From: Bilabrum cf. latius
Lineage: Eukaryota
Direction of reading: 5' to 3'
Length of the DNA: 64,000 nt
Assembly: GCA_965178125.1 (NCBI GenBank)
Contig: OZ237740.1
Span: forward strand, 62,001 to 126,000
Numbering within the stretch: the first letter of the stretch is position 1; each line of letters begins with the position of its first letter. Positions 11,703 through 50,154 of the stretch are shown here, one piece after another. A program made the translations under genes and the position numbers. The notes beneath the pieces were generated by a model, which ran no database searches, was not told where the DNA came from, and was given only the letters and a program-made list of their open reading frames with translations.

Positions 11703-12247
11703 TTATACGCCCTTGGTCTCAGTCATAGTTCTGACAATAGTAGCCAGCCCTCCCTTGCTCAGGCAGTGTGCATGCCACTTCAGCATGCTGCTCAACGAGA
11801 TCCCCTCCTCCATGGCTCGGTACACGTATTTCATGAGCGTGTCGCACTGCGCGTCGTCCAATCCATCCACGCAGTCTCTAATTTTAGCCTCTCTTACGGC
11901 GGCAATTGCTCGCATTACTACTCTAAAGTTGTCATCCTGCGTTCATGTAAGGGATACGGGCAATCGTAAATACTAGCTAGCAAGCACAGTATCAAGCAGC
12001 GCTCCAGGCAAACGTGTGGACACCTCACCTTAATCTCTTGACTTGGAACACTCAGCGGAGGTCTATTTAGCGAAGCTGCAACGGCTTTCATCGGCTTCTT
12101 CGAAGCAATCAATCCCTCAACTTCTGCTGCTCGCTGGGCAACCTCCTCCGCATACTTTGCCAAGCGAGCCGCCTTCTTCGCCTCCTTATCGCGCGTCTTT
12201 GCAGATACCTCAGGGGCTGCTCCACCAGCTCCGGATACGGCGGCCAT
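11703..12247 (-). CDS. ARPC5: Arp2/3 complex subunit 5 (p16-Arc)
   Basis: Exons 12247-12029 and 11936-11703, intron 12028-11937 (GTGAG...GCAG). LDDAQCDTLMKYVYRAM...MLKWH...GGLATIVRTMT matches the ARPC5 signature. Ends TAA; no in-frame TAG. Confidence 0.92.
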
Positions 12248-12454
12248 CGCAGGCAGATCTTACGAATGATTTTCGTATCCAATCCTTGTGGTTGCGGAAC
12301 ATGCTGTGGCGCCGCGCATCAGGAGGTTGAGCAAAATTTCATGGCAGTGCGCTAATACTAGAGGTATAGCGATGAACGAAGGCAGTTCCACACACAACAC
12401 TGGCAATGGGACTCGCTGCGAGCACAAATGCCTCGCTACGGGTAAACTGCAAAG

Positions 12455-15400
12455 TCACCACAAGCGCATCCCGCACAGCCACGCGCCCCGCAATGCTCCG
12501 CACATGCAATATCGCTCGGCATCCTTCCAGTTCTCCGCTCTCTACTGAGCGCTCCCAGTAGTGGCGTCACTACCGTGCAGTGCAGCCGCCACTGCCAGCT
12601 CCCTGAGCCTCCACGCCGACGTGTCCTGGGCCAGCGGCTTGCCCTCTTCCCCGTCCTCGCCTGGTTGCTGCTGCTGCTCCTGCTGTTGTTGCCCACTACC
12701 AGCAGCAGCACCCGAGTCTGCTCCATCCCCGATGCCGCCGGTGCCGGCGGGCGCAGGAGCAGGCGCGGGTGAGGGCGCGGGGATGCACGCCAGGGCCTGG
12801 GCGTCCGTCCCCGCGTTGGGGTCAAAGCTCCAGAGTGCCCCCACAGGGGTCCACAGGTTAGCCTGCGATAGGGTGGGCAAAGTGGGGTCCACCTCCTCTT
12901 CTTCCGGGTTGTCGCTCGCCTCCTGTCTGGGCCTATTGGTCACGTATGCCTCCTCCACGAGCGCGATGGCGGCCATGAGGATGACGTACGTGGACAGGCA
13001 CACGAAGGCGTACATGACAGCCATGCCCCAGGCGATGCGCCACGTGTCCGCGACCGACGTACCCGGCCCATTCGGCTCTTTGCCCACCCCCATACACGCC
13101 AGGAATGTGTCCCGCATGATGTCCCCGTTGGCCACCGCAAACAGGGTCATGCCCGCAGCCGCCGGTCCGTCCATCCGAGGCACGTCGGGGCCCATGGCCA
13201 GGGAACACACGGACACGAAGGCCAGGAAATAGGGCACGCAGCCCAGCACGTACGGTATGATCCGAGGGGCGCCGCGCACGAGCGCCCTGGTCGCAGCCAG
13301 CGCGAACGGAACCGGCTGCGTCCACCTAGAGGCCGAGGCCCAGGCGAAGGCAGCGGCAGCGGCCAGCATTATCTTCCTGCTGGCGAGGCCCTTCAGGTCG
13401 GAGGGCCCGTCGGCCAGCAGCCGCAGGCCGTATGCCACGCCCAGCACGCCCCAAATCAGATCAAGCCCGTCCCAGCCCCGCCGGGAAAAACCCGCAGTGG
13501 TGGCCACGCAGCACGCCGCCAGTCTCCGGCGCGGCCCCGCCTCCCTGTGCCTCCGCAGGGCAGTGGCCTTCTGCCTCGCGACTCGCTGCCTCCTGCGGCG
13601 GGAGCGCGCATCGGCGGCGGTCGCATCGGTTGCGCTGGTGCCTCCGGACGAATCCTCCGCCCCGCCACCCCCGCTTGTTCGCTGAACGGCGCCCCTGAAC
13701 GCGTCCCGCCCTCTCATCATCCTCGCAAGTGCCGCCCTCTCCAGCTGTTCCCTGTGGGCAGCACTGGCACTGGCGCCTGCTCCTGCACTGGCGATGGTCT
13801 CGTCATCCCCACCCGCGGGATCCTGCGCCCGGCCCCCCTGCCGGCTGGAGGGGCGCGGGGGCTCGAGGCCCGCAGCGGCGGCCGCATCCGCGCTGGCGCC
13901 AGGTGCCCGCAGAGAGGCCGCCGCCACTGCCACGCCGGCCTCATCCCCCACCGCCGCCCGGTTCCGCATGTTGTCCTCGTTCGTCACACCCGCACTCGTC
14001 ACACCCTTCCTCGCGGTGCTCATGGCCCTGAGTCGCTGCCACCTCCGCAGTGCCTCGTGCGCCCTGACCGGATCGGCGGCGCACAGCACGGCGATGGAGG
14101 CGCCCGGCATGGCAAGCGACTCGGGCTGCCTGGGACCCCTGCTGGCCCGCCTGCCCCAGCTGTTGCCCCCCCCCCCATTCCCGCCGTCCTGCTCCTCCTC
14201 CTCCCCATGCCCGTCCTCCCCGTGAAACACCCTGTAGCCCAGCTCCGATCCGTCCCCGCTCCCGCAGGGACCCTCCTCGTCACACAGCTTGCAGCAGCAC
14301 GCGGCGCCGCGACAGGGTGCGGAACACCGCAGGCACAGCAGCAGTCCCGCGGAGAGACCATCTGCCAGCCAGGTCAGCCCCGGTGAGTCCTCGAGGGCCC
14401 CAAGATAGCCAATGCCCGGCCCTCCACCTCCACCTCCATCTGCTGCTGCTGCTGCTGCTGCTGCTGCACCGCCCGACCCACCGTCGGCACCCAAGAGGCC
14501 GCCTGCTCCTCCTGTGCCTTCATGGTCCAGCAGGCCCGCTGGTCTGTCCCTGTCATCCCGACCCACTCCCGCGGCAAGGCTTCCTCTCCGGATTGCTGCC
14601 CGCAGCTTGGACCACCCCTTGGACTCTTCCCTGGCTCGGATGAGCCTGGCCCGCGCAGCCCACCGGAAGGGCAGCGCCTCGGCTGCTTCTGCCGCCCAGC
14701 ACCCTATGGCCATGGCACGCACCACGGCTCCCGCTGCCAGGGCAGACGACAGGGCGCACAGACCCAGTGCCAGGGCGGCCAGCACGTGCAGCCAAGAGCC
14801 CCACCAGAGCGACCCCCTCGAGACACCCGGGTCCTCGGCGCCGAGGGCCTGCGATGACGACCCACTCATCACATCCCCGAGCCGCCGCCCGAGGCCGTCG
14901 TCCGCGAGATCGTCATCAGTGACGTCATCGGGGGCGCCGCCGGCCGATGTTCCGCTGGGGCAGGCAGCAAACTGCGCGGTGACCCTCATGAGGAGGCTCC
15001 CGCGGCTGGACCAGTGCCCGACCACCTCGGACGTGCGGAAGGGCCGCGGGCGGTTCTAACCTGTGGGGCTGGCGCGTGCCTCACCCGCCAGGAAGCTCCG
15101 ATCGGATTCCCTGACGCAGCTTCGGAAGGGTCCCGAGGGGTGCAGCGGGGCGGGGGGCGTCTCGTAGATCGCCTGGCCGTCCGGATACACCCGCGACTCG
15201 TCCACCTCGACGCCCCACGCGTCCTACTGCTCCATCGGGTACAAGCTTCCGTCTCCGAATCCATACCCGTCGGGGAACACCACGGTGGGTGCCCCCGCGG
15301 CGGAGTCTGCCTGCTAGCCCCAGTTGGTGGGGGCTCCCACGGTCGAGTCCGTGGGCGTGGCCTGCCCCGGCTGCAGCACAGTCCTCGAGTGCCAGCGGAC

Positions 15401-16324: not shown

Positions 16325-16470
16325 TGTACTAGGAGCAAATTCAACTCGCAACCATTCAAATTCTTTTTTTTGCTTCGTACGAAGACCGCTGGCCCGAATG
16401 TTCCGTAATATAAGCGCGGCGCCACTGGCACCGCGGCCGGAACGAACTCGAGTTGCAGTTCAGTTAAAAA

Positions 16471-18852
16471 ATGCGAGTCCTGCAACTACTTTCGATTTAT
16501 ATTCCTTTCTATGCTGTTGCACTGAATAATGGAAAGGGAAGAACTCCAATGATGGGTTGGAACAGCTGGAATCGGTTCGGGTGCAGGGTATCTGCCGACA
16601 TTCTGCGTAACACAACCGAGCGTCTCGTAGAGCTAGGCCTGGCGGATGTCGGATACAAGAGCGTTAATACGGATGACTGCTGGCTTAACCGGACTAGAAA
16701 CGCGACGGGGCATCTTGCTCCAGCTCCAAACTTTCCTGGCGGAGACCAGGGAATGCGCGATCTTATCGAGTTCATCGACAGCAAAGGGCTGCAATTCGGC
16801 ATTTACGGGGCGGCCGGTGAGACCACGTGCGCCTCGCGCGCAGGCAGTCTCTATCATGAAGACATCGATGCGAGGACGTACGCCAGCTGGGGCGTGAAGT
16901 ACCTGAAATACGACGACTGCGGCGAGGTGAACCTCAACTCGTACGCCAAGTTCCAGGCCATGCGGGACGCCCTCAACCGCACTGGTGTCCCGATCACGTT
17001 CTCGTACGAACCGCATCTGCAAGTTCCAATCGCTTGGCCGCCGCTTATCGGCAACAGCTGGCGCGCGGCCTTCGACATCCGTGCCAAGTACTCGTCCATC
17101 CTAGGCGAGATCCGTGTGACGAACGCGTGGGCGAGCGTCTCACAGCCGGGGGCGTGGAGCGACGCCGACATTCTGGAAGTCGGCAACTCCGGTCTGAGCC
17201 TACCCGAGGCCCGTACCCACTTCGCGATGTGGTGCATGGTCAAATCTCCGTTGCTCATCGGGTGCGACCTCACCGACCAGCCGAGCAGCATCTTGGACCT
17301 GCTGAAGAACAAGCACCTGCTCGGCATCTCGCAGGACCCCCTGGGCGAGCAGGCCGTCCTGGTCGCGTCCTACCCCGGGCCCCAGGGAACAGTGCATCCA
17401 CCGGTGGATCCCGCGCGCCTGCCGCCCCGGCCGGTGGACCCTGCCGCTGCCGAGCGGTACGCGATCGTCACACGGGATGCGTTCGGGTTGATCACAGACT
17501 GCGACGGGCTGGATGGATCTAAATAGGCCGTTTCTGATCGATCGGAAGGCTCAGGGAACAGCGAGGCCGGGACACCACTGGACCCCGCCCAGGTGTGGGC
17601 CCTGGGCGCCGACCAGACCATCCGGAATCAGAAATCAGGGGAGTGCCTCGCCGTGGATGCGTCGCAGTCGCCGCCGGCCGTGGTGCTGGAGCGGTGCGAC
17701 TCGGAATCGGACTCGGAGGGACCCGGAGCCTCCTCCCCTCTCTTGCGGCCTGCCCAGCAGTGGAAGGTGCAGTCGGCCGCTGACCTCACGGTGGCTCCCA
17801 TCGTCAGCCAGGCCAACTTCTCCAGTGGTGGCAGGGCCGATGGCGGAAAGACTGGCCTCTCCCGAACGCAATCTCATTCGTCATGGGGCACCTCGAACAC
17901 GTGGTTCGACGGCCCCAAGGTTGGGGTGCCCGAGCCCTCGCAGGCCAACCGGCGGTGCGGGACGTGCTGCGGCGCCAACGACACCGCCTCGCCCATGTGT
18001 CAGGGAACAACGGAGGACGGGCAGCTGCAGGTGTCCCTCGCGGAGATCACCCAAAGGTGCGCCCAGGATGACGAGTGCGCCGGGTTCGGCCAGGACACGA
18101 CCCAGGGGGGCTACTTTAGGCCGGTCACCTCGGTTCAATCGGTCGACGCCGAGGACGGCAAGTGGAGGACCTGGATCAAGCGAAACGGATCCGAGCCGGC
18201 CGCGAGGTGCCTGGCCACGGACGGCGTTGGGGTGGGCCTGGCCCCTTGCGTGCAGGAGCCGAGCGTCTGCAACCACACGCGGTGCACCAACTCGGTCCGG
18301 GTGGGTCAGCTGTGGTACGCCTCGAGGCAGGGCCAGCTGATCTCCACGTTCACGGACACGCCCGTGCCCCCGCTGGCACTTCCGGTTTAGGAGCCCCATA
18401 GCAAGTCGGCCCCATCGATCCCTGCGCTGCAGGACCCCTCCCACCTGGCCCTCAGGGAACACGTGAGGGAGGTTGCAACCGCCGCGTCCGAAGGGCTGAT
18501 CAACGTGCCCAAGTGCCTGGCCGCAGGCCCCAACGCTCGGCCGCCCATGCCCCCCACGCCACCGCCGGCGGTGGACGATTCGCTGCCCCTGCAGGTGTTC
18601 GCAGGAAAGCTGGCAGGGAACAAGGTGGCGGTGGCGATGATGAACACGGAGGACCCCTCAGGCAGCCCCGCGGTTGCGACCATCCGCGCGCAGTGGAGCG
18701 ACATTGGTCTGGCCCCCGGGACCGAGGTGAGCGTGTTGGATGCGATGTCGGGGGAGGACAAGGGGACGAGCATGGGGCCCATCGTGGCGCAGGTGCCCGG
18801 CCATGACATCGCGGTGTTCGTGCTGACCCCCACCGGGAGGGAGCGACCCTGA
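16471..18852 (+). CDS. Secreted alpha-galactosidase (GH27) with ricin-B-like and Cys-rich inserts and C-terminal beta domain
   Basis: Signal peptide; TPMMGWNSWN, DDCW, WGVKYLKYDDC, SPLLIGCDL. Three same-frame ORFs joined by TAG 17524 and 18388; ends TGA 18852. Confidence 0.92.
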
Positions 18853-19091
18853 AGGGCCTCTTGAGGCCAGTTGAGGCCGGTTGGCGCTGAGCGTACCCGG
18901 CAGAACCTTGAGTAAGCACCGTGTATTAGACAGCTCTACGAACGAATTTGACGGTTTGGTGTTTTAGTGGCTCCCGCGTCCGCACTGTATTGTATGCGCA
19001 CCACTGGTAGTACTACCCGGAATCACAGCCTGGCTCGCTTGGCTCCATCCAGCTCACAAGGAGTTCTGCATCACATAGAAGACTTCAAGCT

Positions 19092-23815: not shown

Positions 23816-26800
23816 ATGAGTTCCCGAGCTCTTGAAGAGTCAAGCGGTCATAGCGAAGGGGGGGGGCATGAGGAAGAACTATTCAAGTACGACGAGACCG
23901 GTGGTGCATGGTTTCTGATGATCACCCTGCTCATCGGAATCTGCGTTCGACTCATGACTAAATTTATTCCTATCCCGTACACTGTTGCTTTGCTGTTGAT
24001 TGGCCTTGCCATTGGTGCCATTGAGGCGCACGGAAGGTGAGGTGCACGGATGACGGGAGCAGCTCGCAACCGTTTCCTGTCGGCGCGGGTAGCAAATTTG
24101 GCGCCTTTAGCGTGGAAGTAAATATGGCAATCGCCATTCTGTCTGAAAGGTCTGCACCCCTGACAACGATGCTGATATGCTTCTTTTCGTTGCGATCCAC
24201 CCGTCTACCATTCTGCGCAGCGGGTACCTTGGAGCCGTCGGTGACAGCATCAGCCTATGGACAAACTTAGATCCCCACACAATCTTGACAATATTCCTGC
24301 CTGCACTCATATTTGGCAGTGCTGCAGCTGTTGGTGAGCCTAGCATCGTGAACATGAAGAGAAGGGAGGTCCAGTTTCCCTTCCCGAATTGCACCAGCAT
24401 CGAGTGACGTGCTTCTCGCTGCAGGTTAGTCACAAGCACATTAGCAAGATATCAATGTCAGTCTATATCTCTTTGTATTGCAGACTGGCACGTCTTCAAC
24501 AAGGAAATATTCCAGATGATGCTGCTTGCCGTGCCCGGCGTGATCATGTCGGCCCTTCTCACGGCCGTCGTGGCCGTGTACGTGATGTATCCCGAATGGA
24601 GCCTGTCTACGGGGATCACGTTCGGGGCCATGCTTTCTGCTACTGACCCAGTGGCCGTGGTGGCACTGCTGCACGAGCTGGGTGCAGCCAAGCAGCTGGC
24701 GCTGCTGATCGAGGGCGAGAGCCTGTTCAACGACGGGAGCGCCCTGGTGGTGTTCATCGTCTTTTTAGACTTTATGGCGGGACAGGAGCCCGTCAGAACT
24801 GCCGGTGAAACGGTCGGTTTCTTCATGCGGCTGGCGCTGGGCGGCGTTGCCTTTGGCTGGCTCATGGGGGAGATCATGGTGAAGGTGCTCAAGGCCTCCA
24901 GGCTCGACATCATGACCCAGATCACAGTCACGGTCGTGTGCGCCTATTTCACGTTTATCGTCGCCGAGAACGAGGCGATCCATGTATCTGGCGTGCTGGC
25001 CGTGGTGTGTGCCGGTCTGGTCATGGCCGCCCACGGCTTCCAGCACGTGAGGCATCGCGAGACGCTGAAGCATTTCTGGGAGACTGTGGAGTATCTGGCC
25101 AATACCGTCATTTTCATCGTGTCGGGGGTCATCATATACGTCAAGGGTTTCGCCAGCTTTGGGTCAGGCGAGGAGGGTGCCATTGACGCGTACGACATCG
25201 CCATGCTATTCGTGCTGTACATCGCACTCATGGTCATCCGCACGCTGGTCATGTTCATTCTTTGGCCGTTCCTGAGGCAGATGGGATACTCTTTCAGCGC
25301 CAAGTTTCTCATCGTGATTTCCTACTCGGGGCTGCGGGGCGCCGTGGGCCTCGTGCTGGCCATCATCGTGGAGAACGACCCGAGGATCTCCTCCGAGATC
25401 AGCGGACGCTTCCTGTTCCACATGGCCGGCATTGCCTTGCTGACTCTGACCGTGAATGGCACCACAACCGGGATGCTGCTGAGCTGCCTGGGCCTGTCTG
25501 GTGCCTCCCCCGCCCGCGCGCGCATGCTCAACAAGGCCATCCGCAGGTTAGTGGAGGTCAAGCAGCGATCTGATTTGTTCTCCCAGGCCCAGTACCAGCA
25601 CGCCGAGGAGGATCGGATCCGAACTTTCATGCGGGACATCTTTGAGGAGCTGGAGGCCTAGACGGAGAAGGTCAGGCACCTCGCGAGCCAGCCGGTGGGC
25701 GGGCACCACCTCTCGGGCTGCACCGGCTGCCTCTTCCGCGCCCTGGGCTGCCAGACATTCCTGGAGATCTTGGACGAGGACGAGAAGGCGGTGGAGCAAA
25801 GGGCGGCAGAGGCCAGGAAAGCGGGCTCGTTCGAGTGCGTGCCTCGCTGCCTCAAGTGCATCGTGGACGTGCAGGACATCTGCGACTGCGCCAGGCCAAG
25901 GGAGAGGGACCGCCTCGTGTGCTGCCCCAAGTCCTGCCTGGGGCTGATCGGCCCGTGGTTCGACTCATGCCCCTGCTGCTTCGAGGTGAGCGGCTACACG
26001 AACCGCGCGGGGGAACACGTGGGTGAGGAGTTCCTCCAGAGGTCGGCGGAGCGAGAGGCGCGTGAGGAGCTGGAGGCGCAGCAGCAGGCCAGGGAGGCCC
26101 TGGAGAGGCAGAGGCGGCAGGACGAGCAGGACAGGGCCAGGATGGGCGTCCCGGGCCTGCCCCCCATGAACCGGCGGATGGTGTCCGTGACATCGGATCC
26201 GCAGCTTATGCCTGTTGGTGGCTTGGTTGCCGCGGTGCCCACCCACAGCCACTCCTTCTCCTACCAGCCAGAGGCGATGGCCAACCACGAGGAGGAGGCG
26301 GCCGTCTACGACAAGATGCTGCCCGGTCACGCGTAGAAAACCCAGCTGGAGAGGGGCAGGACGCTGCCTTCCGTGCAGGAGGCGGACTACGAGGGCGAGA
26401 CGATGGAGGGTGCCGAGGGGGCGCATGTCATGGGGGAGCAGGAACTGGATTCTTTGGGGGATGGGGATGGAGATGTAATTGGAGGCAACAAGAGTCGTAA
26501 GGGTGGACGCGTGGCGGTGGGCACTGCTCGCAGCCGCAATGCCTCAGGGGGGTCAACAGGTTCCGTGCTGCCTCCCGGCAGCCCCGGCAGGAGGGGCTCC
26601 GGCGGCTCTGCCTTCGGGTCGCCGACCCGGAGCAGAAAGCCGTTCTCACCTACGGACGGCAAGTCTGCTGGAGGTACTGGCGCCGAGGACGAGCAATTTC
26701 GCAAGGCCACGGACTCCGGCAAGGTCATGGTGAGAACCCAAACGGAGATGTGCATGGCCAACGCGCAGATGCAGCGGGACGGCGGAGAGTCGAGGACGCC

Positions 26801-29800: not shown

Positions 29801-31004
29801 CGGCATGATGCGGGGTGTTTCTGCCCCGCACGCCGACAGGAGGAGGCAGCTAGATAGCTCTGCGGCAGATGCGGCCGGTGCGGCGAGTGGGGGCGCTGCT
29901 GGTGCTGCGGCGAGTCACATACCCGGCCACGCTGCTCTTGCCGACGTGGACGACGTGGCGGTACAGTTGCATGACAAGCCCGCGTTGCCGCAGCGCGCCT
30001 TCCGATCCAAGACAGAGGGCGGGCAGCACCAGCGGTCGGCTCAGGACGACTTGATCGGGCTGCAGAGGGCAAACGGGGGCAATCGGCAGAGCATCGGACC
30101 AAGGGCCGGCCCCAATGCGCATGACATTGACGATTTCGACCCTGACTACCACGCGAAGAACCAGGACGATGCGGAGTCAGTTACATACCAGTGCCACGTG
30201 GGGAACACAGTGGTCAGCAAGACCCTCGAACCTCGCGACTTTGACACCAAGTACTCGCCCTTCCAGTTCGTTCCCTACACTCACACGCGGGGTCGGTTCC
30301 TATGGTTCAGCGCGCATGCCCGCATCCTCGTGTTCCCCAAGGGCATGGTCGCGAGGGAGCTGCAGCGGGTGGACGCTGAGGCGAAGCGGCACGCGAGGGA
30401 GGTGCGAAGGCAGAGGATCGGCCAGGCAGAAGGTGAGGGCGCCATGAATCTGAGAGACGTGGTCCACACTGTCATGGCCGAAAAGAAGCTTCATGAAGCT
30501 GCCGGACTCACCTCTCGTCCGTCTGCCTCGGAGCGAGATATTGAGGACTGCGAGGACGTGGCAGCAAAATGCGATGGCGACGAATGCGTCGACCAGTGCG
30601 CGTTGGACGATACGATGGGAGGCAGTGCGATGCCCGATGGGCTGCCTGCAACGACGAGCACGCCCGCTGGGACTGTCGGGGCGCAAGGAGCTGCCGGTGG
30701 GGCCCGGGGTACACCAGGCGGGCTCAGGATCCGCAGCCCGCCAAAGAGCAAACCGGTAGGCGGTATTCAGCTCCCTGGTAGGAAGGGCGGCGCTGCGGAG
30801 AGCAACTTCATCCGGGCGAGTCGCATGGATAGCGATGTCATGATGGCGATGGGCGTGCTAGCACAGTAGCGTAGGCTGCCCCCGGCGGCCGCTCGCAGTG
30901 CCACTGGGGGGGGCACGCGGGTTGCTTCGTTTCGGGATGATGCCCTAGCGCCCGGATCCAAGGTGGCGGCTCGAGGTCGGTCCAAACTGGGGCCAAGGGA
31001 TTGA
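23816..31004 (+). CDS. SOS1/sperm-NHE-like Na+/H+ antiporter (CPA1) with cyclic-nucleotide-binding domain
   Basis: Introns 24037-24220 and 24334-24483. SATDPVAVVALL, IEGESLFNDG, GLRGAVGLVLA; cNMP-BD YEPGDVLLQEGQRAPGFFVLMSG...GNLVGVVSMLTG. TAG at 25659, 26334, 27861, 28845, 29043, 30867; ends TGA 31004. Confidence 0.9.
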
Positions 31005-33949: not shown

Positions 33950-36900
33950 TCAGGACCGGTTGCCAGCTGAGGCAATTGCTCGCAGCCTCTCCGCCTGCTC
34001 GCTCCCAGTGGCCTCCACGAGCGACCGCAAGTAGCCAGTCACGCGAGCGCCATTTAATTCCTCGCTGTCGCTCTTCCCCTCTGCCGGGCCGTTCTGCTCG
34101 CTTTCTTGTTCGGGGGCGAGCAGGGCGGCAGGAGGACCGAACTCGACTACCTTACCGGCGTGCATCACCGCGACCAGATCGCCGTCCAGCACGGTGTCGA
34201 GCCGATGCGCAATCGTGATCACGGTCGCATCCGCAAAGTCCTCCCGAACCGCCTGCTGCAGCGCCGCGTCGGTCCGCTCGTCAGTGAAGCTGGAGGGCTC
34301 GTCGAGGATGAGAACCTTGGCGCGGCGAAGCACCGCGCGGGCGAGCGCGACCAGCTGCCTCTGCCCCGCGCTCATGTTGCTGCCCCCGTCGTCCACCTGC
34401 CGCCCCAGCCCCGCCGGGTCCTCTTTCACCCACTGCCCCAGCTGCACCCTGTCCAGTGCGTGGAGCAGCTGAGCATCCTCCATAGTGCTGAAGGGGTCCA
34501 GGTTGTCCCTGAGGCTTCCCCTGAACAGCGCGGGCTCCTGCGTGATCACCGCCACGCTTCGACGCAGCAGGCTCAGAGGCACCTCGCGGGCCAGGTGTCC
34601 GCCGATCGAAATGCCGCTCCACTCCCCACCACTCGTCACACCATCGAGTTCCGCGCCAGCCGGCGGCGGCTCAGACTCGTACAACCGCAGCAGCGCCTGG
34701 ATGAGCGTGCTCTTTCCAGCTCCGGATCGCCCCACGATGCCCACCTTGCTGCCAGCCGGTATGTCTGCGGTGACGCCGCGCAGCACCCACGGGAGATCGG
34801 TTCTGTAGCGCATCCACATGTTCCGCAGCTGGATGGCGGGCACCGCGGGCCAGTCGGACGGAGGTGTCCCGCTTCCCGGGCGTTTCCCGAAAAGTTCTTT
34901 GGACTGTTCCAGGCGAAGCGCTTTCCGCGCCTCCGCTGCTGCCAGCACCTGTGGCGATTGCCTGGACGTGCCGCTGCGAGCCGCAGACAGCAGGTCCGCG
35001 CGGCTGCCTGCTCTCTGTGTAATCTTCCCGGAACTTTCCTAGGAAACATCCCCGGAATTCCCGGGCGTTTGCTCCTCGTCCAGGTCGACGTCCTCCTGCG
35101 GCAGCCGGGCGTACTCGAGCAATCGCTCCACCGAGATCATCTGCTGCTCCAGCTCCGCCGACTGCCGCATGCACCACTGCACCACGCTCGTGAGCTGCAG
35201 CGCCAGCGTCAAGGAAAGTCCCACGAGGCCCGCATCCAGCTGGCCCCTCAAGAAGATGCAGCCGATCGCCGTGGCCGCGTTGAAGCCCACGCACATGAGG
35301 TCCAGCCGGTATCCCAGCCACCTGCTCGCCACCAGGAACATAAAGTACGCCCTTGCGTTGAGGTCTAGAGCCGCGTCCGAGTGCTTCGCGAGCGTGGGTT
35401 CGAGACCCAGAGCGCGCGCGGGGACGACCCCATCGAGGGCCTCTGCCAGGCTGCCGAAGACCTGCGACCTCGACACCGCCTCGAGGCGCTTGATCTCCCT
35501 AGCGGACTGGAGGAAGAAGCCGCGGAGCCAGACCAGGACGCCCAAGAAGGGCAGCGCGCATATGAGGAGGTAGGGGTTGGCCACACACACCGTGGCAGTG
35601 GCCACCACAACGAGGAGAGCGATGTTGAGGAAGTCGAACGAGGTCATGGGCATCAGGTCGTCCACGAACCCGACGTCTTTGGACACCCTGTTCAAGATCC
35701 GACCCGCCGGATTGGCATCATAGTGCGTCAGCGGTGCCCTCAGCAGGGCTGCCATCATCCTGTCGTGCAGGGCGCGGGAGGACGCCACAGCGCCGAGGAA
35801 GAAGACCGTGGTGCGGACGGCAGACAGCACCACGGTGCCGGCCGCCAGCCCGCTGTAGGAACCCCACCAGTAACCCGTCTGCTGATCGTCCCTCGACTGA
35901 CCCGCCCACTCCGTGATCCAGAACTGGGTGAACACCACCATCACGGTGCCTGACACGAGCAGGAAGGCGGTCGCCAGCAGCTGGCAGGGCCCCCCAGCGG
36001 CGGAAAAGTAAGTCAGGTAGGTGCTCCAGGTCACGGCCCCCGCCTCCTTGCCCTCTGCCTTAACCAGAGAGCTCCCCTTGCCGGATTCCACATCGTTCTT
36101 TCCGGCATTGCTGCCATCAGCATCGCTGGCGTCTTGCTCCTAGGACTTGGCTGCGATGGCCGCAGCCCCGCCGGCCGCTCCCTTGGCAGCTGCCGCAGCA
36201 CGGTCCGCTGAGGTCTCCGCGTTGTTCTCCTTGGCCTCTCTCGCGGCCTCGGAATCGGCAGCGGCCCCCGCAGCGGCCGAGATCGCCCGAACAGCTGCCA
36301 CCTCCTCCTGCGCCTGCTTGCCGGCGTAGGTCCTGTCCCTCGACATCGGCGAGGCATCACCGCCGCCGGCACCCGTGGCCCCAGGGCTGGCACGGCCCGC
36401 CCCATCCACGGGAATATCGTCCAGGTCTACTTCCTCCAGGTGCGCAGGCCCTGCCCCTGCCCCTGTTCCTGCGGAAGGCTTGTTCTCTGCCTCACCGGCG
36501 GCTTCGCCAGCAGCACCCGCCGTGGACGCATCCCCATCCTTGTGCACCTGCACTTCGACGTCCTCCACGTCCTCGCCCTCCTCCTCCAGATCCGCCCTGA
36601 CCACCGTCAGGTCCACCTCTTCCGGTGCTCCCTGAGAGACCACCACTCCCCGGTGCATGACCGATACCGCGTCAGCCTTGGACACGAGGTGCAGCTGGTG
36701 CGTGGCCAGCACCACGCACCGCCCCTCTTCCAGGAGCAGGCCCTGGATGCACCGCTCCACGATGAGCCTGCCCACCTTAGAGTCCACCGCACTGAGCGGG
36801 TCGTCGAGCAACACAGCCTTTTCCTGGCCATAGCACGCTCTCGCGAGCGACACCCGCGCCTGCTGGCCCCCACTCAGGTTGACCCCTCTGTTCCCCAGCC

Positions 36901-38647
36901 TCGTGAAGTCGCACCTCTCGAGCAGCTTGAGGTCCGGCATGAGCCCGCAGGACCAGAGCACCTTCCAGTACCGCGCCTCGTCGAAGGGACGGCCCGCCAC
37001 CACGTTGTCACGGAGGGTGCCGGTCACCACCCACGGCTGCTGGGGGGAGAGCGCGGAACGGCACCGCAGGCTGGCAGACCCCGCCGTGGTGGGCAGCTCG
37101 CCCAGCAGGGTCATCAGCAGTGAGGACTTCCCGCTGCCGACGGCCCCCACCACTACGTGCAGCTGGCCCTGCCTTGCCGTGAACGAGACGTTGGACAGCG
37201 TCCATGCATGCCCAGAGGGGCTGTACCGGCCAGAATTGGAGCGGTCCTGCCCATCTCCTGCCGTCTGGGGCGTCTACCTACCACCACCGTCGTCTTCGTC
37301 GTCTTCGTCATCTTCACCGTCGTCGTCCTCGCCCCACCGCGCGAATACCCCACGGAGCTCCGCAACGATCGGAGCCGAGCCCCCCTCCCCATCATTTCCT
37401 GCCGCCCCCTCCCCCTCCCCCTCCACGTTCTCGATGGCACCAGTGGCCATGGCCTGCTTCTCGGGGAGCACCAGCACCTCCGTGAGCCTCCGCAGCGCCG
37501 TGGCTGACTCGGAGGCGAACTCGATGGCGAGCGGGATGAACTTGGCAGCCACGAGCTGCAGCAGGTTGAAGAGGCCGAGTGTGACGAGCACGCTCTGGGT
37601 GGACAAAGTTTCACCCAGGGCCGCGCTTGCGACCAGGAACGTCGCCGCGGCCACGATGGTGTTCATGCTGCCGAACAACGCCTCGTTCATGGCGCGCAAG
37701 ACGCTAGCGCTCGCGATTTTCTCGACCTCCTTGGCCCTTACCCCTGCGATCCTCCGGGCCATGGGCCCCTCCCAGGCGAACACCTTCAGCATGCGTATCC
37801 CGGCGATCACGTTCCTCGCCAGCTGTACCCTCTTGTCCTGCAGGCTGGCAGCCGAGGCGCGAAGGGACCCAAAGAGCCGGGCGAAGACCCCCTGCAGGGG
37901 GACGAGGAGAGCCAGGGCGGCCAGCCCCGCGAAGGCAGCGGCGCCCACCTGGAGGTAGAGAACAACCGCGATGGCGATGATTTCAGGGGGTCCCATCCAC
38001 AGGAATGCGACCATGGTGGCGACGCGCTGCAGCCGCTCCAGGTCCTGGGACACGATGTTCACGACCTTGCCAGAGCCGGCCCGGCGGAGTCCTGAGACAG
38101 AGGTGCGAAGGATTTTGCGCATCACGAGCGCGGTGAGCGCGTGCCTAAACTCCATGCCGTGATGCCACGCGCTCCAGAAGAATGAGTGGTGCATCATTGC
38201 AGCGCAGCCGGTCGCAAGCCCGAGAATTGCGGCGTAGACAGCGCCTTGCCAGAGTTCCTCGTCTTCGTTCTGCAAGAACTGCACGAGCCAGCCTACCGCA
38301 AGGACACCAAGAATTCGGCACCCACTATTGACGGACAGCAGCAGACTCGCAACAAAATAGGACCAGCCGAAGGTGTGGAGCAGAGCAGAGTACAAACTCG
38401 GCTACCTATTTTCTCGAGACGCAGTCTGCAGCTCTTCCTCCCAAGCAGCCCCGAGCCGCTCCGCAAGATTAGCAGCTTTATCTTCTTCACGGGTCAGCGG
38501 GAAGTCAGCAATCGCGAACCTGCCAGACATACGGAAGAATGGAGCTGCCCACACAAAGATGAGCCGGCTGCAGCAGTTAGCATCTTCAATGTAGCCACTG
38601 TGCTCTGTCGTTGCTCGAGCATCTTTGAGAATAGATGGCGACAGCAT
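33950..38647 (-). CDS. Full-size ABCC/MRP-type ABC transporter (TMD-NBD-TMD-NBD), intronless
   Basis: Five same-frame ORFs joined by TAG 38402, 37274, 36140, 35039. Walker A GAVGSGKS and GRSGAGKS; signatures LSGGQ and MSAGQ; IAHRL; ends TGA 33950. Confidence 0.95.
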
Positions 38648-38852
38648 CACTAAAGCAAAGTACTCTGCAGTACCCTGCTAGAGCAATACAAGATGCAGTT
38701 GCACTAGGCGACGTGGAAAAATTCCGCGTTCTTTGCCGACACAACTACACGCAACAAACCATTCAAACGGAGATAAACTAGTTGGGCGCTATACAGCCGT
38801 ATCTGACGATTTTGGGCGTTTTTGTATGGTCGGGCAGTAATCTATTGTTCTT

Positions 38853-41800
38853 ATGCGGCGTTTGTAGTCGAAAACTGCCAGGGATATTCACGATGCTGAC
38901 CACGCGATGCTTCGCATCCGCGAGTCCGGTCACCAACAGCAACAGCACCGTGAACGCGGGTTCAAAGCCGATACTCAGATGCTGCAGCACGTGAACGCTG
39001 TTGGCACAGAGCTTGCACAGGAGGCGGATGATCAGCTCGCCGAAATTTGCGACTGGGTTCGCCAGCGGCAGCCACAGGTGGAGCCTGAATCTGAGCAAGC
39101 ACGAGCGCCTTTTGGAGACATAGAGCAGGTGCTCCAAGCAAACACAGAGGAATCAAGTCCGCTACCCAATAAAATATCACTGGCTCGGCAGGAGGTGCCC
39201 GAAGAAGCCCCACGAGGTGCATCTTTGAGGGGAGCTGCCCAGCTTGCGTCTCGGGCCAGGACGGCCCATGCGCGGGAGCTGGCGGCTCGGGCGGAGGCCG
39301 CCAGCCTAAGAGCAACCCTGAGAGAAAGCAAGCGAGGGTCATTGCACGAAGGGGCTAGTGCTCGCATCCGCACAGGAGCGCCGAAATAGTCGCACGCTGC
39401 GGGCCCCCGAGTGATCGAGGTGCGGCCCAGGCCCAGTGGCAGCACCATCCACCGAGAGGACCCTCGCGGGGAACAGAGGCAGTGGGGCAAGAGCAGGGCA
39501 CGTGGAACCGATGCAGGACCTGGTCATACCACTGTGTCCCTGTCCGGCATCGAGGGGCGGCGCAGCAATGCGATGCACCTGACGCATCATGGGGAGGCGG
39601 CAGATCAAGGGACAGCTCGCCAACAAGCATCTGCTCGGGACCCACCAGCAGGCAGCCCGCAGACAGGCAGCTCCGACCCCGGCGAAAGTACCCTATCGCA
39701 GCTCACAGCCACAGCTGACCCACTCGTCACGATGCTCCGCAGGCAGCTGCACAGCTGCGAGCAGGCCCTGGAGCAGGAGAGGAGACGGTCGGCCGACGAG
39801 CGGGCGAGGGGGGATACTGCCATCTCCGCGGCGCGGAGGCTGCGGCGGCTGCTCTGCGCCAGGGAACAAGACCTTCAGGAGTCCGAGCGCCGGCGGCTGT
39901 CACGGCGGCGGGACTCGTTGTTCCCTCTGGTGGAGGCCCCCGGCAGGGAACAAATCGAGGCGGCGGAGCTGCGGGCGGATGCAGCATCGGGCGGCAGGAG
40001 GGCGCTCGAGCAGGAGGTGCGGAGGCTCAGGGAACAAGCCGACGCGCTGCAAGGGAGGCTGCTGCGGCTGGGGGAGCAACAGGGCGTGGAGTAGGTTGCA
40101 ACCGGCAGGTTGGGCCCGTCGGGCGTGGAGGGTCTGGCATCGTCGCCGTATCTGCGGCAGGACAACCCGACGGCGGGCGGGAGGGACCGGCCAGTGGAGA
40201 GGGAGGCTTCGAGTGAGAGGCAGGGTGCAGGTGCAGGTGGCAGTAAGGGGAGGGTGCCCCCACGTCTGCCAGGGGATCATGACCCCGCACTGGGGACAGA
40301 GGGCAGGAGTCTCTATGCGGGTCCTTCAGTGCGGCTGGAGGAGTCGGTCGAGGCGGGGCTGCGGGCGGCCATGGATAGCATGAGAGAATTCGCAGCCGCG
40401 GGGGACGCAATCCCCAGGAAAGCGCCGCAGTGGGATACACCCCACGTGCAACACCAGAACAATGATGCATCCCATTGCGGCAGTCCTTCCCCCTCTTTCC
40501 TCGCGGCATTGTCCTCGGTCAGCGAGGCCGTGCAGTCGCAGGGCACCAGGGCTTCGAGGCTGGGCCGCAGGTGCAAGCGGCTCCAGATGGCGAATGCCAG
40601 GCTCCGGGGGGTGGTGGCCAGACAGCGGTCCCTCCTTCGGCGAGCTGAGAGGGCCTAGCTCGAGAGGGCCAGGCAGCTCTAGAGCTGCGAGGAGGGACTC
40701 AGGCTGGTAGCGGATGGTGCTGGTGTTGGTGCTGGTGCTGGTGCTGGTGCTGGTGCTGGTGCTGGTGCTGGTGCTGGTGCTGGTGCTGGTGCTGGTGCTG
40801 GTGTTGGTGTTGGTGCTGGTGCTTGTGCTGGTGCTGGTGCTGGTGCTGGTGCTGGTGCTGGTGGCTTGCTATTGGGAGAGAGTATTACCATGGGCATAGG
40901 GGATGGGGAGGTTGGTGCAGCACAGTCCAGACCCACCGGTGCATTTAGGAGAGCTGCCGGTGGTCAAAGTGGGTATCTAACGGTGGATCGCCGGGGCTTG
41001 GTATCAATCAGAGACAGCGAGGAGCAGGCCCTCCGGTGGGGGGCTCGGGCCGAGCTCGAGAGGTGCATAGCCCAGGAGGACTCCAGGCTGGCAGAGCGGA
41101 GGGCGGGCGAGGCGGAGGCGGAGACTCGGAGGATCAGCGGTGAACAGCAAGGACTGCAAAGGGCGCTGCTGAAGGCTCTGGGGGAGGCTGCCTCGGCCAG
41201 GGCCAGGGAACAATGGCAGGGGGACCAGGTAAAGATGCTGACGAGTGCGCTGCTCGAGACGTCATCCGCGGCTCAGTCGGCGGGGCAGCGGGCGCGACAG
41301 CTGGCCAGGTCCGCGCAGGATATGTCCGTTGAGCTCGAGGAGGCACTTGCCCGGGAAGACGGGCTGGAGGCGGCGCTGGAGCAGCACAGGAAGGTCTTTA
41401 AGGAACAGGTGAGAGCATGATTTGCTTGGCCGCTGCAGTGCATCCAGTCCTCACTGGGACAGGAGCTGGCCGTGTGGCTGCCGGGGCACTCGTCTGGTAC
41501 CGTTTTGCACTATCCCTCGCTTTGACCCCCCCCCCCCCCCTCCCCTCGTATTAACCCCCCTTGCATTGACCCCACCCCCCCTAGTATCTATCTCTTTCTC
41601 GCAGTCGGCTGCCTGGAAGCAGCACTTCGGCATGCTGCTTGAGGCACTCAGGCAGGCCACGGAGCGGGGCGCTGTGGCGGCAGGGAACAGGGGCGGACCA
41701 GGGAACAAGGGTGGTGCAGCAGGTGAGCCGCTGGTGGCAGGGCATAGGGGGATCGGGTCCGATGCACTGCACGGTGGCGCGGGCAGCAAAGCCGGTGCGG

Positions 41801-42987
41801 ATGAACTGGGGAAGGGGGGCTATGTCCCCGCTGCGGGGTCATTGGAGGAGCTGACTCGCATGGTGGATGCAGCCGAGGCGAAGCGATGGAGGGCAGAGGC
41901 ATGCCTGAGAGCCCTCGGGGAGTGGTGCAAGGGTGTGACGAGTGCGCTGGCGGAGGGGATGCGGACGGGTGCGGACCGGCTTAGCGAGCGAGCTGGCGAA
42001 TTAGCGCAGGCAGCCTTCAGGCTGCGCCAGTGTGATGAGTGCAACACACCACACGGCACGACACCCCTCGGTAGAACAGCCGGTGCTGGGGCTTATGCCA
42101 GCGCTGGAGTCAGCACCGAAGCAAGCGCTGGAGTCGGCGCGCGAGCCGCCGGTGGAGCCCTTGGCTAGCACCTCTCCAGATCGGTCCGGGGAACAAGCGA
42201 GAGCAGCTCGGCTTGGGCCCTCGAGGCGCTCGGGACTGCCCTGCGGACGGCCTGGCAGGTTGCAACCGCCGCGCTCAAGGCCAGAGAAGGTGTGACGAGC
42301 TCCACGTCAAGGCAAGAAGGGTCCGAGTTGTCGGCAACCCAAGCAGCCCCGAAGGCCACGTCTGGACCCGGCGCCGCGCGCCGGTTGGTTCCGCAGGCAG
42401 CAGAGGGCGACGATTCGTCCGGAATGGAGGCGTGGTGGGCCGGCCGAGCCGCTGCCCTTGGTGCCTCATTCGATCGGAGCATCGACAGGCTGCTCCCCTC
42501 CGCACTGGCTGATGCCACAGGCCGCCCCACCCTTCGCGGCCTCGCGCGGCAGGTGGCGGCGGCATAGGCGGCTCTCGAGCGGGAGGCAGGTCGCAGAAGG
42601 AAGGCGGAGCAGCTGCTCGCTCGCTGGTCGCAAGCGCGCGGCGCCTCCGCTGCGCCCGAGGTGCTGGCCTCGCAGCCGTAGTAGTCGCCCGAGGCCGGCA
42701 GTGGAGGCGACAATGGAGGAGGAACAGCAGCCAGCAAGACGATCGGCTCCGGATCCACACGGTGTGACGAGTGCAGCGCCGCGCTCACCGCTTGCGAGGG
42801 ACTCGCGGAGGCGGCGGCGGACGCGACGCGAGCCGCCGTGCGGGCCCGTCGCGGCGAAGAGATCGCCCTGGCAGAGGCCTGGCGGGAGAGGTAGCTGTGC
42901 CGCGCGCTCGCTCGAATCGCGGGGGACTAGAGCCGGGGGAAGCAGTAGCAGCAGCAGCAGACCGGCGCACCTCCGGATACAAATTGA
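38853..42987 (+). CDS. Coiled-coil hypothetical protein
   Basis: Same-frame ORF chain joined by 12 TAG codons; intron 41409-41604 (GTGAG...CGCAG, phase 0, poly-C inside). E/R/A/L/Q-rich helices; ends TGA 42987. Start could instead be 38907. Confidence 0.7.
40716..40862. repeat. (GGTGCT)n microsatellite, ~24 units, encoding Gly-Ala in the coiled-coil gene
   Basis: Read directly; in frame with the flanking coding sequence. Confidence 0.95.
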
Positions 42988-43141
42988 GTGGGCCAGTCAG
43001 TTCCTGCGGGTTGACCAGGCTCCGCGTTGCGCGCAGCCGCCACCCTGCCAGCGAGTGTGCTGTTGCAGGTGTGTGACGAGGGCACCACGGCAAACGCTGG
43101 AATGGGCATCTTCAGCGTATTTGTGAGTTTTATCGCCAGGT

Positions 43142-45823
43142 ATGCGGCGATTTTATTCAATTTTGGGATTGTATGCATCGATAATTGTGGTATCTGGATT
43201 CGATACCGGTCTGGAGATTCCCGAATACTGCTTCTACGGCAACAGTTCGGATGCTTCTGTGCCGCTGGTAAACCGTGGGTTGTTTTTCGGCATCCCGTGC
43301 TCCATAGCATCGCAACCAGTGGATGCATGCATTGTAGACACGGGAACAGGAAGCCTGGATGTCACACCGCCGATCTGTGCGAGGCCCGTGGCACGTCCAG
43401 AAATCAATGATACTGTTTCACCTGTTGATCCCCGTCTTGGCTGGAAACTCGATGTAGTTGCCGTGTACTCTCCATCGAACATAAGTATTTGCCAAATGAA
43501 CGAGACACATAGGCAGGAATGGGACGTAGAGGCAAGCTTCTGCAATTCGGAAGACCTGGCGCAGTCGTTCGGACCGGGGGGCTCCTCCTTGTGGCACAAC
43601 GCGACGGTACACCCCTCGCAAGGGAACGGCACGCTGTCTAATACAACCATTGAGTCGAACGTGACGTACAGTGTGCAGCCGGGTGATCGCCTGGAGGCTG
43701 GCGATTGCTCGGTCATCTTGCTCGGCGGCCGCTCGGCTGGGTTCCTCGCCGTCGCGCAACCCCTGCTGCCGGGAGGAGCTCAAGACGAAGCGTACTTTCC
43801 TCCTGGATTATCATCTCCCCAAGGAATTGCCATCGATGGGGTCAGCTGGAGGTTCTCGCCCTCCCAGGCGGCACTGGCCAACGTCACGCTGCAATGGCCG
43901 CGCCGCGCCTCCGAGCTCGCCAGCGGAACCGGCCCGCGCGGCGCCCATGCCGGCTGGCCTTTGCAATCCAATCGCTTGCAATCGGGTCAGCTCAGGGCGC
44001 GGACCCTCCTAACTGTGTCCCTGGCGCCGTTGAGTACCTCTCGGTTTCGTGCCAGCGCAATGCACGCCGGTCTTGCGGCTACCAGGGGCTGGTTTGGCCT
44101 GGGAGCGTAGCAGCCCATTGCACCCTTTAACTCTGCCATGATGGCTTATTTTCGGTCCGGGTCCATGGGCGTGCGGGCGGCGGGGGCCCTTGCACAGGCG
44201 GAGAGTCGGTTTGCGGAGTCGGTTGCAACCGGAGGGAATATGACCCTCAAAGAGGCCAGGGAACAAGGGGAGGCGTGCTCGAGGTACCAAGCCATTGCTT
44301 TGCCCATGCCTACCGGTTCCAACCTATCAGCGATAGCGTGGCGGGGCCAGAGGAGCGTTCCTCCGCTGGTATCACTTTAGGGCGCCAGGGCCGTGTTCGG
44401 TGGCCTGCCGTCCGAGTGGTCCGAGTGGCAAGCTCTGGGGGATAGTTCGGATGTCGGAACGGCGGGTGGTATCTCGTGGAGCGATCCGCTGCCGCTACCA
44501 AAGAGCTGGCGATCATCGTACCAGCTGGACTTTAGTGAGCCTTCGCTGTGCGGAGCGCCGTTGATGACAGGCCAGGAGGCGTCATACCCAGCCCTTTTGG
44601 ACTCCGGGGCTGTCTGTCTGCGCCTACCCGAAGGTTCTTTCCAGGCACTCATGCACTAGCTGCCGCTGAAGTGCCCCCCTTACGCGGGCCTTCCGGAGTC
44701 AATGTCTCAGGCACTTAGGAGTTTCCGCACTGGAACTGACCCCGAGCTGTTGCTTGGGACCGGGGACGTTCCGTAGGGCCAGGAGGTTCCACTGCGAGAA
44801 AGAATCAACGAAACGGACGCAGTGTGGTCGTCATTGTGCGAATTGGACATGGAGCTGATCCGATCTGCGAGGGAACAAAATCCGGGAAACGAGGAGGCGT
44901 CGCTTTTGCCTGACCTAAGCTTTGCGCCCAGGCCGGGGGGCAAACGAGTCAGCATGCCGCTAGATGGTCTCTTGGTGACTCGTGAGGAACTGCGGGCCGC
45001 GGTGTAGCGGTTGCAACCGCTAGCAGTGCAGCGATTGGCTGGCGGGCCCGGGGATTTCCCAGGCGCGCTGGGCAGCAGTCGCGACGCAGTTGCGGAACCG
45101 GCGCCGCGCATTTGCGTGGTGCGGGGTGCGGAGGAGGTGCACGCTCGACTGGGCACCTCCTCAGCGCAGGGTGCCGCTGTGTCGATCGGTGCCCTGCCCA
45201 TGCGTGCCCTGGGCGGGGCCGCAATGGACGCCCTCCGGTGGAGGGTCGGGTTTCCGGTTTAGGGGGCGCGTGCGGGGGCCGGGGACGAAGTGTCGGGGTG
45301 GAATGCTAGCCAGGCAGAGGTGCGCGGCGGGGCGGCGCAGGTTACGGGCCGGGCGTCTCTCGAGCGCCTGGGTCAGTGCCGGCCGCTCGCCGCGTGCGAG
45401 GAATGGGAGGTGCTCGATGTGACGATGAACAGGTGCCTGCGCTCGGACTGCTCGTCGTACATGATGCACCGCAATGCAGTGAATGGGGAGTGCGAGGTGT
45501 CAGGGGGTGCCGTCACGGGAATCGTCATTGTGCTGCTTGCGGTCATCGGCACGGACTTTTTCGCTAGGAGGTGCATGCTGCTGTCGGTGGAGGAGGCAGC
45601 TTACGGCAAGCAAAGGGGCAGGAGGTGGGAATGGTGGCCGCTGCAGTTGACCGTAGGATGCTGCGTGACGATAGCTCGCATGATGCCCTGCCTGCGGTGC
45701 TGCTGCTGCTGCCGGTGCTGCTGGTGCTGCAGGCAGTTCGACCAGGATGGGAGGGGGGCCGCTGGCGCTGGGGGTCCCGATGCAGCGGCAGCGGCAGCTG
45801 CGCATGAGTGGAGGTGGGGGTAA
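43142..45823 (+). CDS. Membrane-anchored pepsin-like (A1) aspartic protease-like protein
   Basis: Signal peptide; two catalytic-type motifs IVDTGTG and ALLDSGA; C-terminal TM (GIVIVLLAVIG) and Cys-rich tail. TAG at 44108, 44378, 44657, 44774, 45005, 45260; ends TAA 45823. Confidence 0.65.
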
Positions 45824-50092: not shown

Positions 50093-50154
50093 AGCTATCA
50101 GGAATGCATATCTTTGAAAATGGGTTGTTCTGCCCGCGCAAGGCCTAGATCGTT

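Follow-up and report, generated by a model that had tools for sequence, protein, structure and literature searches.

UAG very probably read as glutamine, with UAA and UGA kept as stops, in the nuclear genome of a probable bicosoecid

Does UAA remain a stop codon in a nuclear genome that reads UAG as sense, or do the two codons change meaning together? The question was raised by a stretch of 64,000 nucleotides (G000:C6:62001-126000, hereafter the window) from G000, a eukaryotic assembly of 48.6 Mb in 111 contigs with a GC content of about 62%. Frames of at least 400 codons in this window number 29 when TAG is taken as sense, 12 under the standard code and 14 when TAA alone is freed. An earlier sequence-only reading of the window had proposed that UAA and UAG are decoupled, with UAG recoded and UAA and UGA still ending genes. 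The nuclear evidence on the code, which we took from contigs C1-C42, indicates that UAG very probably encodes glutamine (Gln) and that both UAA and UGA are stops, genome-wide. In the window itself, 18 frames counted from the first ATG or exon start contain 69 TAG and no TAA in 16,777 codons. This count is partly circular because the frames had been cut at TAA; tests anchored by homology on other contigs were used instead, and these non-circular tests agree with it.

The absence of TAA from reconstructed coding sequences, as first reported for the window, holds in the dynein heavy chains. We aligned 19 G000 dynein heavy-chain genes to 148 reference proteins (150 less two that were near-identical) and counted codons in gap-free aligned context, which gave 117 TAG, no TAA and no TGA in 36,278 codons. 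If both UAA and UAG (UAR) encoded Gln as in the ciliate-type code, 10.6-18.5 TAA would be expected there from the A:G ratios of the Gln, glutamate (Glu) and lysine (Lys) boxes (P = 2e-5 to 9e-9). Six-frame family searches found 20 TAG and neither TAA nor TGA in 28 dynein AAA matches, and 48 TAG, 1 TAA and 2 TGA in 65 Ras matches. The lone TAA and one TGA of the Ras matches are located in introns; the remaining TGA, at C13:416403, is a point against our reading of the code. No in-frame TAA appeared at conserved sites in the aligned samples.

The strongest test against UAA as sense is provided by AT-rich elements inserted in the genome (50 kb, 38% GC), in which CAA and CAG occur 438 and 134 times. 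A UAR = Gln code would predict about one TAA per 20 codons of these elements, or about 556 TAA in 11,147 long-frame codons, yet TAA-free frames reach 863 codons and take up 86% of the block; of the 53 open reading frames (ORFs), 39 stop at TAA. The proposal that UAA is sense but rare in a GC-rich genome, with the TAA ends misplaced, could appeal to the scarcity of A-ending codons in host genes (CAA:CAG 0.13) and to the TGA found within 5 codons of two of the three TAA ends first cited in the window, but in the face of the dynein counts, the element frames, 13 fixed C-termini at TAA and no transfer RNA (tRNA) with a UUA anticodon among 49 and 35 pattern matches it deserves virtually no credence, and the ciliate-type code is excluded as had been claimed.

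Terminal codons were tabulated at 50 C-termini fixed by homology or motif, the motifs being known ones or read off reference tails. Thirteen end at TAA, 37 at TGA and none at TAG (95% upper bound for TAG ends, 5.8%), so that no conserved gene clearly terminating at TAG was seen among them; UGA is the main stop in host genes and UAA the minority stop. Ras-family loci with prenylation motifs (20 of 30; Rab CC/CXC and CAAX ends) contributed 4 TAA and 16 TGA, dynein genes with a defined end (12 of 19) 2 TAA and 10 TGA, and eight histone gene types 3 TAA and 5 TGA, with TAA after H4 GFGG and after one H3 RGERS. Arf loci with a fixed end (8 of 11) gave 2 TAA and 6 TGA and include tandem twins that finish LKA-TGA and LKG-TAA, and the genes for the release factor eRF1 and for ARPC5 both stop at TAA at fixed ends. 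Left out of the 50 were 7 of the 19 dynein genes, 10 of the 30 Ras loci and 3 of the 11 Arf loci, whose ends were not fixed; among these Ras and Arf loci none was seen stopping at TAG. For several of the 13 fixed TAA ends there is no TGA within more than 24 codons downstream, and a sister eRF1 (L136) terminates at TGA where the G000 eRF1 has TAA.

The case for UAA in the window had been built on three genes, which are listed here in window coordinates with the other features that bear on the code:

12029..12247, minus strand: ARPC5 exon 1, with ATG at 12247 and a GTGAG donor at 12028 (from sequence, predicted splice sites)
11703..11936, minus strand: ARPC5 last exon, with TAA at 11705-11703 (Pfam PF04699, E 4e-18; PDB alignment)
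31320..33323, minus strand: SPFH/band-7 frame with 5 in-frame TAG and TAA at 31322-31320 (Pfam PF01145)
43127..45823, plus strand: 898-codon frame with 6 in-frame TAG and TAA at 45821-45823 (frame reading; "aspartic protease" label unconfirmed)
16468..18852, plus strand: alpha-galactosidase with 2 TAG between its N- and C-terminal domains and TGA 8 residues past PF17801 (Pfam)
24408..31004, plus strand: Na+/H+ exchanger with cyclic nucleotide (cNMP)-binding domain, 2,198 codons, 6 TAG, 0 TAA, TGA end (Pfam, frame reading)
33950..38887, minus strand: full ABC transporter (2 membrane and 2 ATPase domains), several TAG, 0 TAA, TGA end (Pfam, frame reading)
48701..50455, minus strand: ribosomal RNA (rRNA) adenine dimethylase (KsgA/Dim1 family) with a TAG inside its PF00398 domain and a TGA end (Pfam)
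42946..42948, plus strand: TAG within a Gln run (Q-x-QQQQ), 12 codons ahead of the terminal TGA at 42987 (sequence)
12542..12544, minus strand: last TAG of the 12455-16459 frame, 28 codons ahead of TGA (tail coding score 0.0)

All three TAA codons, at 11703-11705 (minus strand), 31320-31322 (minus strand) and 45821-45823 (plus strand), are where they had been placed. For ARPC5 the match to PF04699 runs to profile position 149 of 150, and position 76 among the 78 residues of the last exon corresponds to residue 149 of 151 in solved ARPC5 chains; the TAA therefore coincides with the conserved end, and of the three genes this one is the strong witness. The nearest TGA in frame lies 34 codons past the TAA, and reading TAA as sense would append 33 residues. 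The SPFH gene and the 43127..45823 gene do carry a TAA at their ends but are weak witnesses, as homology fixes neither C-terminus and a TGA comes 4 and 5 codons on, respectively; for the second, the name "aspartic protease" found no support in Pfam or PDB sequences. Fourteen long frames end at TGA, matching the number of genes first reported to do so, but the end is fixed by a domain in the alpha-galactosidase only, and the TGA-ending frame at 41420 may continue into the following frame. Pfam matches in the window comprise ARPC5, alpha-galactosidase, an SNM1-type nuclease, the Na+/H+ exchanger, SPFH, the ABC transporter and the KsgA/Dim1 methylase, and several of them span TAG. No tRNA gene was found within the window. 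We also observed that the frames at 48701-50455 and 52121-52816 (both minus strand) have identical translations over their first 101 codons, which implies two copies of a stretch of about 300 bases at a distance of 2.4 kb in the window.

A context-dependent UAG, read as Gln within genes and as a stop near the 3' end of the mRNA as in Condylostoma or karyorelicts, would fit the retention of all canonical motifs in eRF1 and the 28-codon tail of the 12455-16459 frame. The coding score of that tail after the TAG at 12542 is 0.0, which is neither that of coding sequence (about +0.2 to +0.4) nor that of non-coding sequence (about -0.1 to -0.4); it marks the one site in the window at which TAG may still be a stop. 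With 0 of 50 fixed ends at TAG, however, such a code is extremely unlikely, and TAG is read through 11 codons ahead of a CITS-TGA end (L062) and 12 codons ahead of the TGA at 42987, which argues against a position-dependent code. Condylostoma and Blastocrithidia are recognized by one codon that is both internal and terminal, whereas in our samples TAG was internal only and TAA and TGA were terminal only.

Gln is the amino acid to which the conserved positions of UAG point. TAG columns of the dynein alignment at 90% conservation or more (n = 14) comprise 12 Gln, 1 valine (Val) and 1 tyrosine (Tyr), the Tyr column being 94% conserved, and those at 70% or more (n = 29) comprise 20 Gln, 7 Glu, 1 Val and 1 Tyr. 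The log-likelihood of the TAG identity is -365 for Gln and -492 for Glu. TAG accounts for 6.6% of all Gln codons and for 6.9% of those at near-invariant Gln columns, so there is no avoidance at the latter. In addition, the Gln of the DTAGQE motif is replaced by TAG in 8 of 30 Ras-family loci, eRF1 position 44 (Gln in 82 of 85 homologues) is written TAG, and the sister eRF1 (82% nucleotide identity) has TAG at a site where G000 reads CAG. Contigs from two runs of two studies, X8 and X9, join all three predicted eRF1 introns and show no other letter at the TAG sites; the eRF1 TAGs are therefore unedited. Two further loci with TAG in a motif are a Ras-like gene (L042) with two consecutive TAG in a DTAG-x-x motif and a glutamyl-tRNA synthetase (GluRS; L286) with TAG in an HI-x-EFSRLN motif, where glutaminyl-tRNA synthetase (GlnRS) has tryptophan (Trp).

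The CUA-anticodon tRNA predicted by the sequence-only reading is present at G000:C23:907607-907679 (minus strand), adjoining a TAG-using Rab gene. It is single-copy, scores 69.8 bits and forms a full cloverleaf with all pairs standard and a short variable loop, which argues against a leucine (Leu) or serine (Ser) identity. A CUA anticodon pairs with UAG and not with UAA, and therefore tRNA(CUA) alone decouples the two codons. That such an anticodon reads UAG only has been shown for Tetrahymena (as cited in PMC5304391 and PMC11687900). The expected lack of a tRNA(UUA) was also borne out, as none was found by a T-arm-anchored scan (49 matches) or a D-arm-anchored scan (35 matches). Both patterns recover tRNA(CUA), and the D-arm scan also takes in intron-bearing and long-arm tRNAs; the absence rests on these scans, Rfam having scored 63 of 780 tRNA candidates. 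Rejected tRNA(UUA) candidates include a repeat of about 25 copies, out-of-register tRNA-Lys(UUU) genes and C34:139372. From the D-arm scan 15 of the 35 were fetched and rejected and the others judged from the listed match alone. Sub-threshold ARAGORN calls at L106 and L292 were likewise rejected; Rfam returned no such tRNA for L292 and 7 further candidates, and L106 was judged without Rfam. With a broad tRNA pattern, 20 candidates fetched from among the 100 matches listed of 209 yielded 2 new credible tRNAs. Dispersed repeat families were also encountered, one at about 25 places (for example G000:C2:1623409, L085) and one with a tRNA-like T-arm at 8 places or more (for example C1:1887196, L283).

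How tRNA(CUA) is charged is less directly read from its sequence. Among recovered nuclear tRNAs it shares 50 of 73 letters with tRNA-Tyr, 44 with tRNA-Gln(CUG) and 43 with tRNA-Gln(UUG), in a comparison where unrelated G000 tRNAs share 42-55 letters, the histidine, aspartate, Trp, Leu and Glu(UUC) tRNAs were not recovered and the phenylalanine tRNA was left out. In the acceptor stem, 12 of 14 letters are those of tRNA-Tyr (with C1-G72), 6 those of tRNA-Gln(CUG) and 2 those of tRNA-Gln(UUG). It carries G73, G2-C71, G10 and U35 and lacks the A73 of eukaryotic Tyr identity. These four are bacterial Gln determinants according to a review in which the eukaryotic Gln determinants are left blank (PMC9976931). 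A search of G000 for these synthetases gave two matches, one GlnRS and one GluRS, and no second GlnRS dedicated to tRNA(CUA). The single GlnRS would most probably charge tRNA(CUA) through U35 and G73. We offer as a doubtful but new route that an amber-suppressor copy of tRNA-Tyr (GUA to CUA, C1-G72 kept), rather than a mutated tRNA-Gln, may have been switched to Gln through G73 and G2-C71. A search of IMG/VR for a viral origin of tRNA(CUA) gave no match, and a looser pattern led to 3 unrelated contigs, on which the tRNAs matched bear different anticodons.

Several of these observations weigh against a clean Gln assignment. TAG is in excess at Glu columns of 70-90% conservation (7:20 versus 20:291 for CAR codons, that is CAA and CAG; p = 0.003), one TAG stands in the 94% Tyr column, and the likelihood gains just 2-3 units with a 10% Glu or 2% Tyr mixture. 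The likeness of tRNA(CUA) to tRNA-Tyr, which is a lead, concerns an ancestry that does not itself point to Gln, and the RNA status of X8 and X9 was guessed, no holder of the eRF1 stretch being on record as RNA, though their contigs skip introns. The Glu and Tyr columns and the tRNA-Tyr likeness would suit a UAG read mostly as Gln and partly as Tyr or Glu, by way of a Tyr-like acceptor stem in which C1-G72 is a eukaryotic Tyr determinant (PMC9976931). We consider such mixed decoding very unlikely, however, since the discriminator is G73 and not the A73 that TyrRS needs (PMC9976931), TAG is not depleted at the invariant Gln columns and the likelihood drops once Tyr makes up 10% or more. The TAGs in Glu columns are confined to 4 columns, and CAG or CAA stands in other G000 paralogues at 3 of these; at 90% conservation or more there is no such excess. 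TAG at Glu and Tyr sites is explained by recent substitutions, because GAG and TAC are one step from TAG.

If UAG is Gln, the remaining question is how termination discriminates it from UAA. G000 has a single eRF1 gene (L001, four exons) with TAG at human positions 44 and 69 and a TAA end in register with the Cafeteria end; the search for a second eRF1 in G000 found none, its three matches being eRF1 and two pelota exons. Conserved columns are changed more often in the N-domain (18 of 84) than elsewhere (11 of 144; p = 0.004), the most among 86 sequences, whereas Cafeteria eRF1 has no such excess (6 of 84 versus 13 of 146). Among the substitutions are G29A (Gly in 84 of 85 homologues), N30D, I35V, S60V, L69Q, E107Q and N129S. 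L69A increases read-through of UAG slightly more than it does read-through of the other stops, N129 has been proposed to read a third-position G (PMC4381064), and I35 is part of the core above the GTS (Gly-Thr-Ser) loop (PMC3384315). Comparison with the eRF1 of a known UAG-only lineage, as the sequence-only reading had suggested, did not recover the T32G of Iotanema spirale: G000 keeps G31-T32-S33, its changes flank the GTS loop, and the exon joints are confirmed by the X8 and X9 contigs. We suggest that eRF1 likely lost UAG recognition, and that G29A, N30D, I35V, S60V, L69Q and N129S, around the GTS loop and P1 pocket, would probably have removed most of its affinity for a third-position G. 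An autoregulation of eRF1 by its own TAGs was considered and rejected, as they are 2 of its 16 Gln codons, not above the 6.6% background.

Not everything in eRF1 supports this. G31-T32-S33, E55, NIKS, S70 and YxCxxxF are intact, wheat eRF1 also has Gln69, N30A is without effect in yeast (PMC4381064), and no single causal change is identified. It could therefore be argued that eRF1 still recognizes UAG and that tRNA(CUA) mostly wins the competition, with some premature termination tolerated, and the single tRNA(CUA) gene and the minor share of TAG among the Gln codons of host genes are in keeping with that. We nevertheless regard such competition as unlikely. Some genes of the inserted elements carry 10-19 TAG, TAG is commoner than CAG in these elements (202 versus 134), dynein genes have up to 17 aligned TAG in 10 kb (L069), eRF1 itself has two, and its N-domain is the most changed of those compared.

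The inserted elements named above are virophage-like and have adopted the host code. The AT-rich block on contig C3 (G000:C3, about 1089500-1140000; L306-L310), with related blocks on C5, C7, C9 and C25 (L311-L314), encodes a virophage-type capsid (PF22031, E 1e-12), an rve integrase, a C5 DNA methylase, GIY-YIG, RNA ligase and SET proteins. Its 53 ORFs contain 202 TAG and have 39 TAA and 14 TGA ends, and coding cover is 86% with TAG as sense versus 34% under the standard code. A search for free relatives of the inserted capsid gene returned no locus. Beside tRNA-Pro and tRNA-Met genes at L306 6901-6971 (G000:C3:1096901-1096971) we observed a degenerate tRNA of 37 bits with a broken anticodon arm; it is 47 of 71 letters like the host tRNA(CUA), with two compensatory acceptor-stem changes, a weak likeness given that unrelated viral tRNAs reach 41-48.

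Virophages depend on giant viruses, and the G000 lineage is therefore a candidate host type. A giant virus that serves these elements could plausibly, if not probably, use the same code, which would make the lineage a host for TAG = Gln giant viruses. According to the accessible text on the GVMAG catalogue (PMC13524828), every giant virus in isolation was obtained from a host with the standard code. The mitochondrial genome (C111; L129-L132; 38.4 kb, 24% GC) has a code of its own, with UGA as Trp and a tRNA-Trp(UCA). Its ORFs of at least 100 codons all stop at TAA (30 of 30) with no TAG inside, and ARAGORN finds 10 tRNAs.

G000, a marine flagellate, is a probable bicosoecid (Stramenopiles, Bigyra) that seems to be related to Cafeteria. 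Among named organisms, Cafeteria roenbergensis has the closest eRF1 (69%), and a quick eRF1 tree places G000 with Cafeteria at 81 and with Bicosoecida sp. CB-2014 at 93 in the Shimodaira-Hasegawa-like approximate likelihood ratio test (SH-aLRT), neither starred; a cox1 search gave no close named match. Cafeteria roenbergensis/burkhardae resembles G000 in its mitochondrial UGA = Trp and in its AT-rich, integrase-bearing virophage-like (mavirus-like) insertions, whereas its eRF1 has L69, G29, N30 and S60. In its accessible text the Cafeteria genome paper mentions a non-standard code for the mitochondrion only. An eRF1 of another subclade (L181, Ga0073977_1434622; 63% to G000) has two in-frame TAG, a TGA end and, on this one contig, a strongly changed N-domain (N61Q, L69N, S70A). 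It is possibly a second UAG reassignment, in which case bicosoecids may have recoded UAG more than once. Two metagenome loci on unrelated contigs (L190, L193) show eRF1 genes that contain both TAA and TAG in frame and stop at TGA, the UAR = Gln pattern. A second eukaryotic 18S gene at C95:6099-7900 (L134), with 77-83% identity to the main array on C12, shows on this small contig that some DNA from another eukaryote is present in the assembly.

The comparison codes that follow are drawn from the accessible parts of PMC11687900, PMC5304391, PMC9161772 and PMC10553269. Iotanema (Fornicata) has the same codon table as G000, UAG = Gln with UAA as stop, in an unrelated supergroup, and its tRNA has been predicted and not identified, while the G000 gene is located (PMC5304391, PMC9161772). 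The ciliates Hartmannula sinica, Trochilia petrani and Protocruzia tuzeti also share it (PMC11687900). UAA is the terminal codon of 86.9-98.3% of genes in the five phyllopharyngean genomes that are recoded, a dominance by which the authors explain why UAA is fixed (PMC11687900); G000, in contrast, keeps UAA as a minority stop (13 of 50). Neither H. sinica nor T. petrani yielded a suppressor tRNA, in so far as the available text of that paper covers them (PMC11687900). UAA and UAG are decoupled with other amino acids in the rhizarian exLh and phyllopharyngean metagenome-assembled genomes from TARA (UAG = Leu), Scotinosphaera (UAG = Ser) and the ciliate PL0344 (UAA = Lys, UAG = Glu). The eRF1 of exLh is changed at the same position 69 (L69A) as that of G000, whereas the known suppressor tRNAs of these lineages resemble isoacceptors of the inserted amino acid, unlike the not clearly Gln-like tRNA(CUA) of G000. 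Bacterial release factors split UAG and UGA, and because of this the mechanism in crAss-like phages differs from that in G000. The "genetic code 15" of these phages has the same table, TAG = Gln with TAA and TGA as stops (PMC9523058).

G000 is an independent new case of a rare, known UAG-only Gln code; new are the lineage, UGA as main stop, the eRF1 changes and a located tRNA, whose acceptor stem is like that of tRNA-Tyr. We found no report of a non-standard nuclear code in stramenopiles in the literature, mostly open-access main text without supplements. The main text of a 2024 stramenopile review, as far as it was available, has no mention of such codes, and PMC10120064 concerns other taxa. 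G000 would thus probably be the first stramenopile with a non-standard nuclear code, with a modest chance of a prior report of stramenopile recoding; that it should be both this and the bearer of a tRNA(CUA) of tRNA-Tyr origin is rather improbable.

Few lineages are known to have UAG-only nuclear codes, and for most of them the data are transcriptomes or fragmented assemblies that yielded no Gln suppressor tRNA; a contiguous genome now brings together tRNA(CUA), a single eRF1, a single GlnRS and recoded viral insertions. Standard-code annotation shortens many G000 genes. The discrimination of UAG from UAA by eRF1 is open to direct test here, with the eRF1 of Cafeteria, a cultured model flagellate that uses the standard code, as a matched control. 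For giant viruses that read TAG as Gln, the lineage also offers a candidate type of host. Finally, UAA can persist as a minority stop, and the explanation offered for ciliates does not cover G000.

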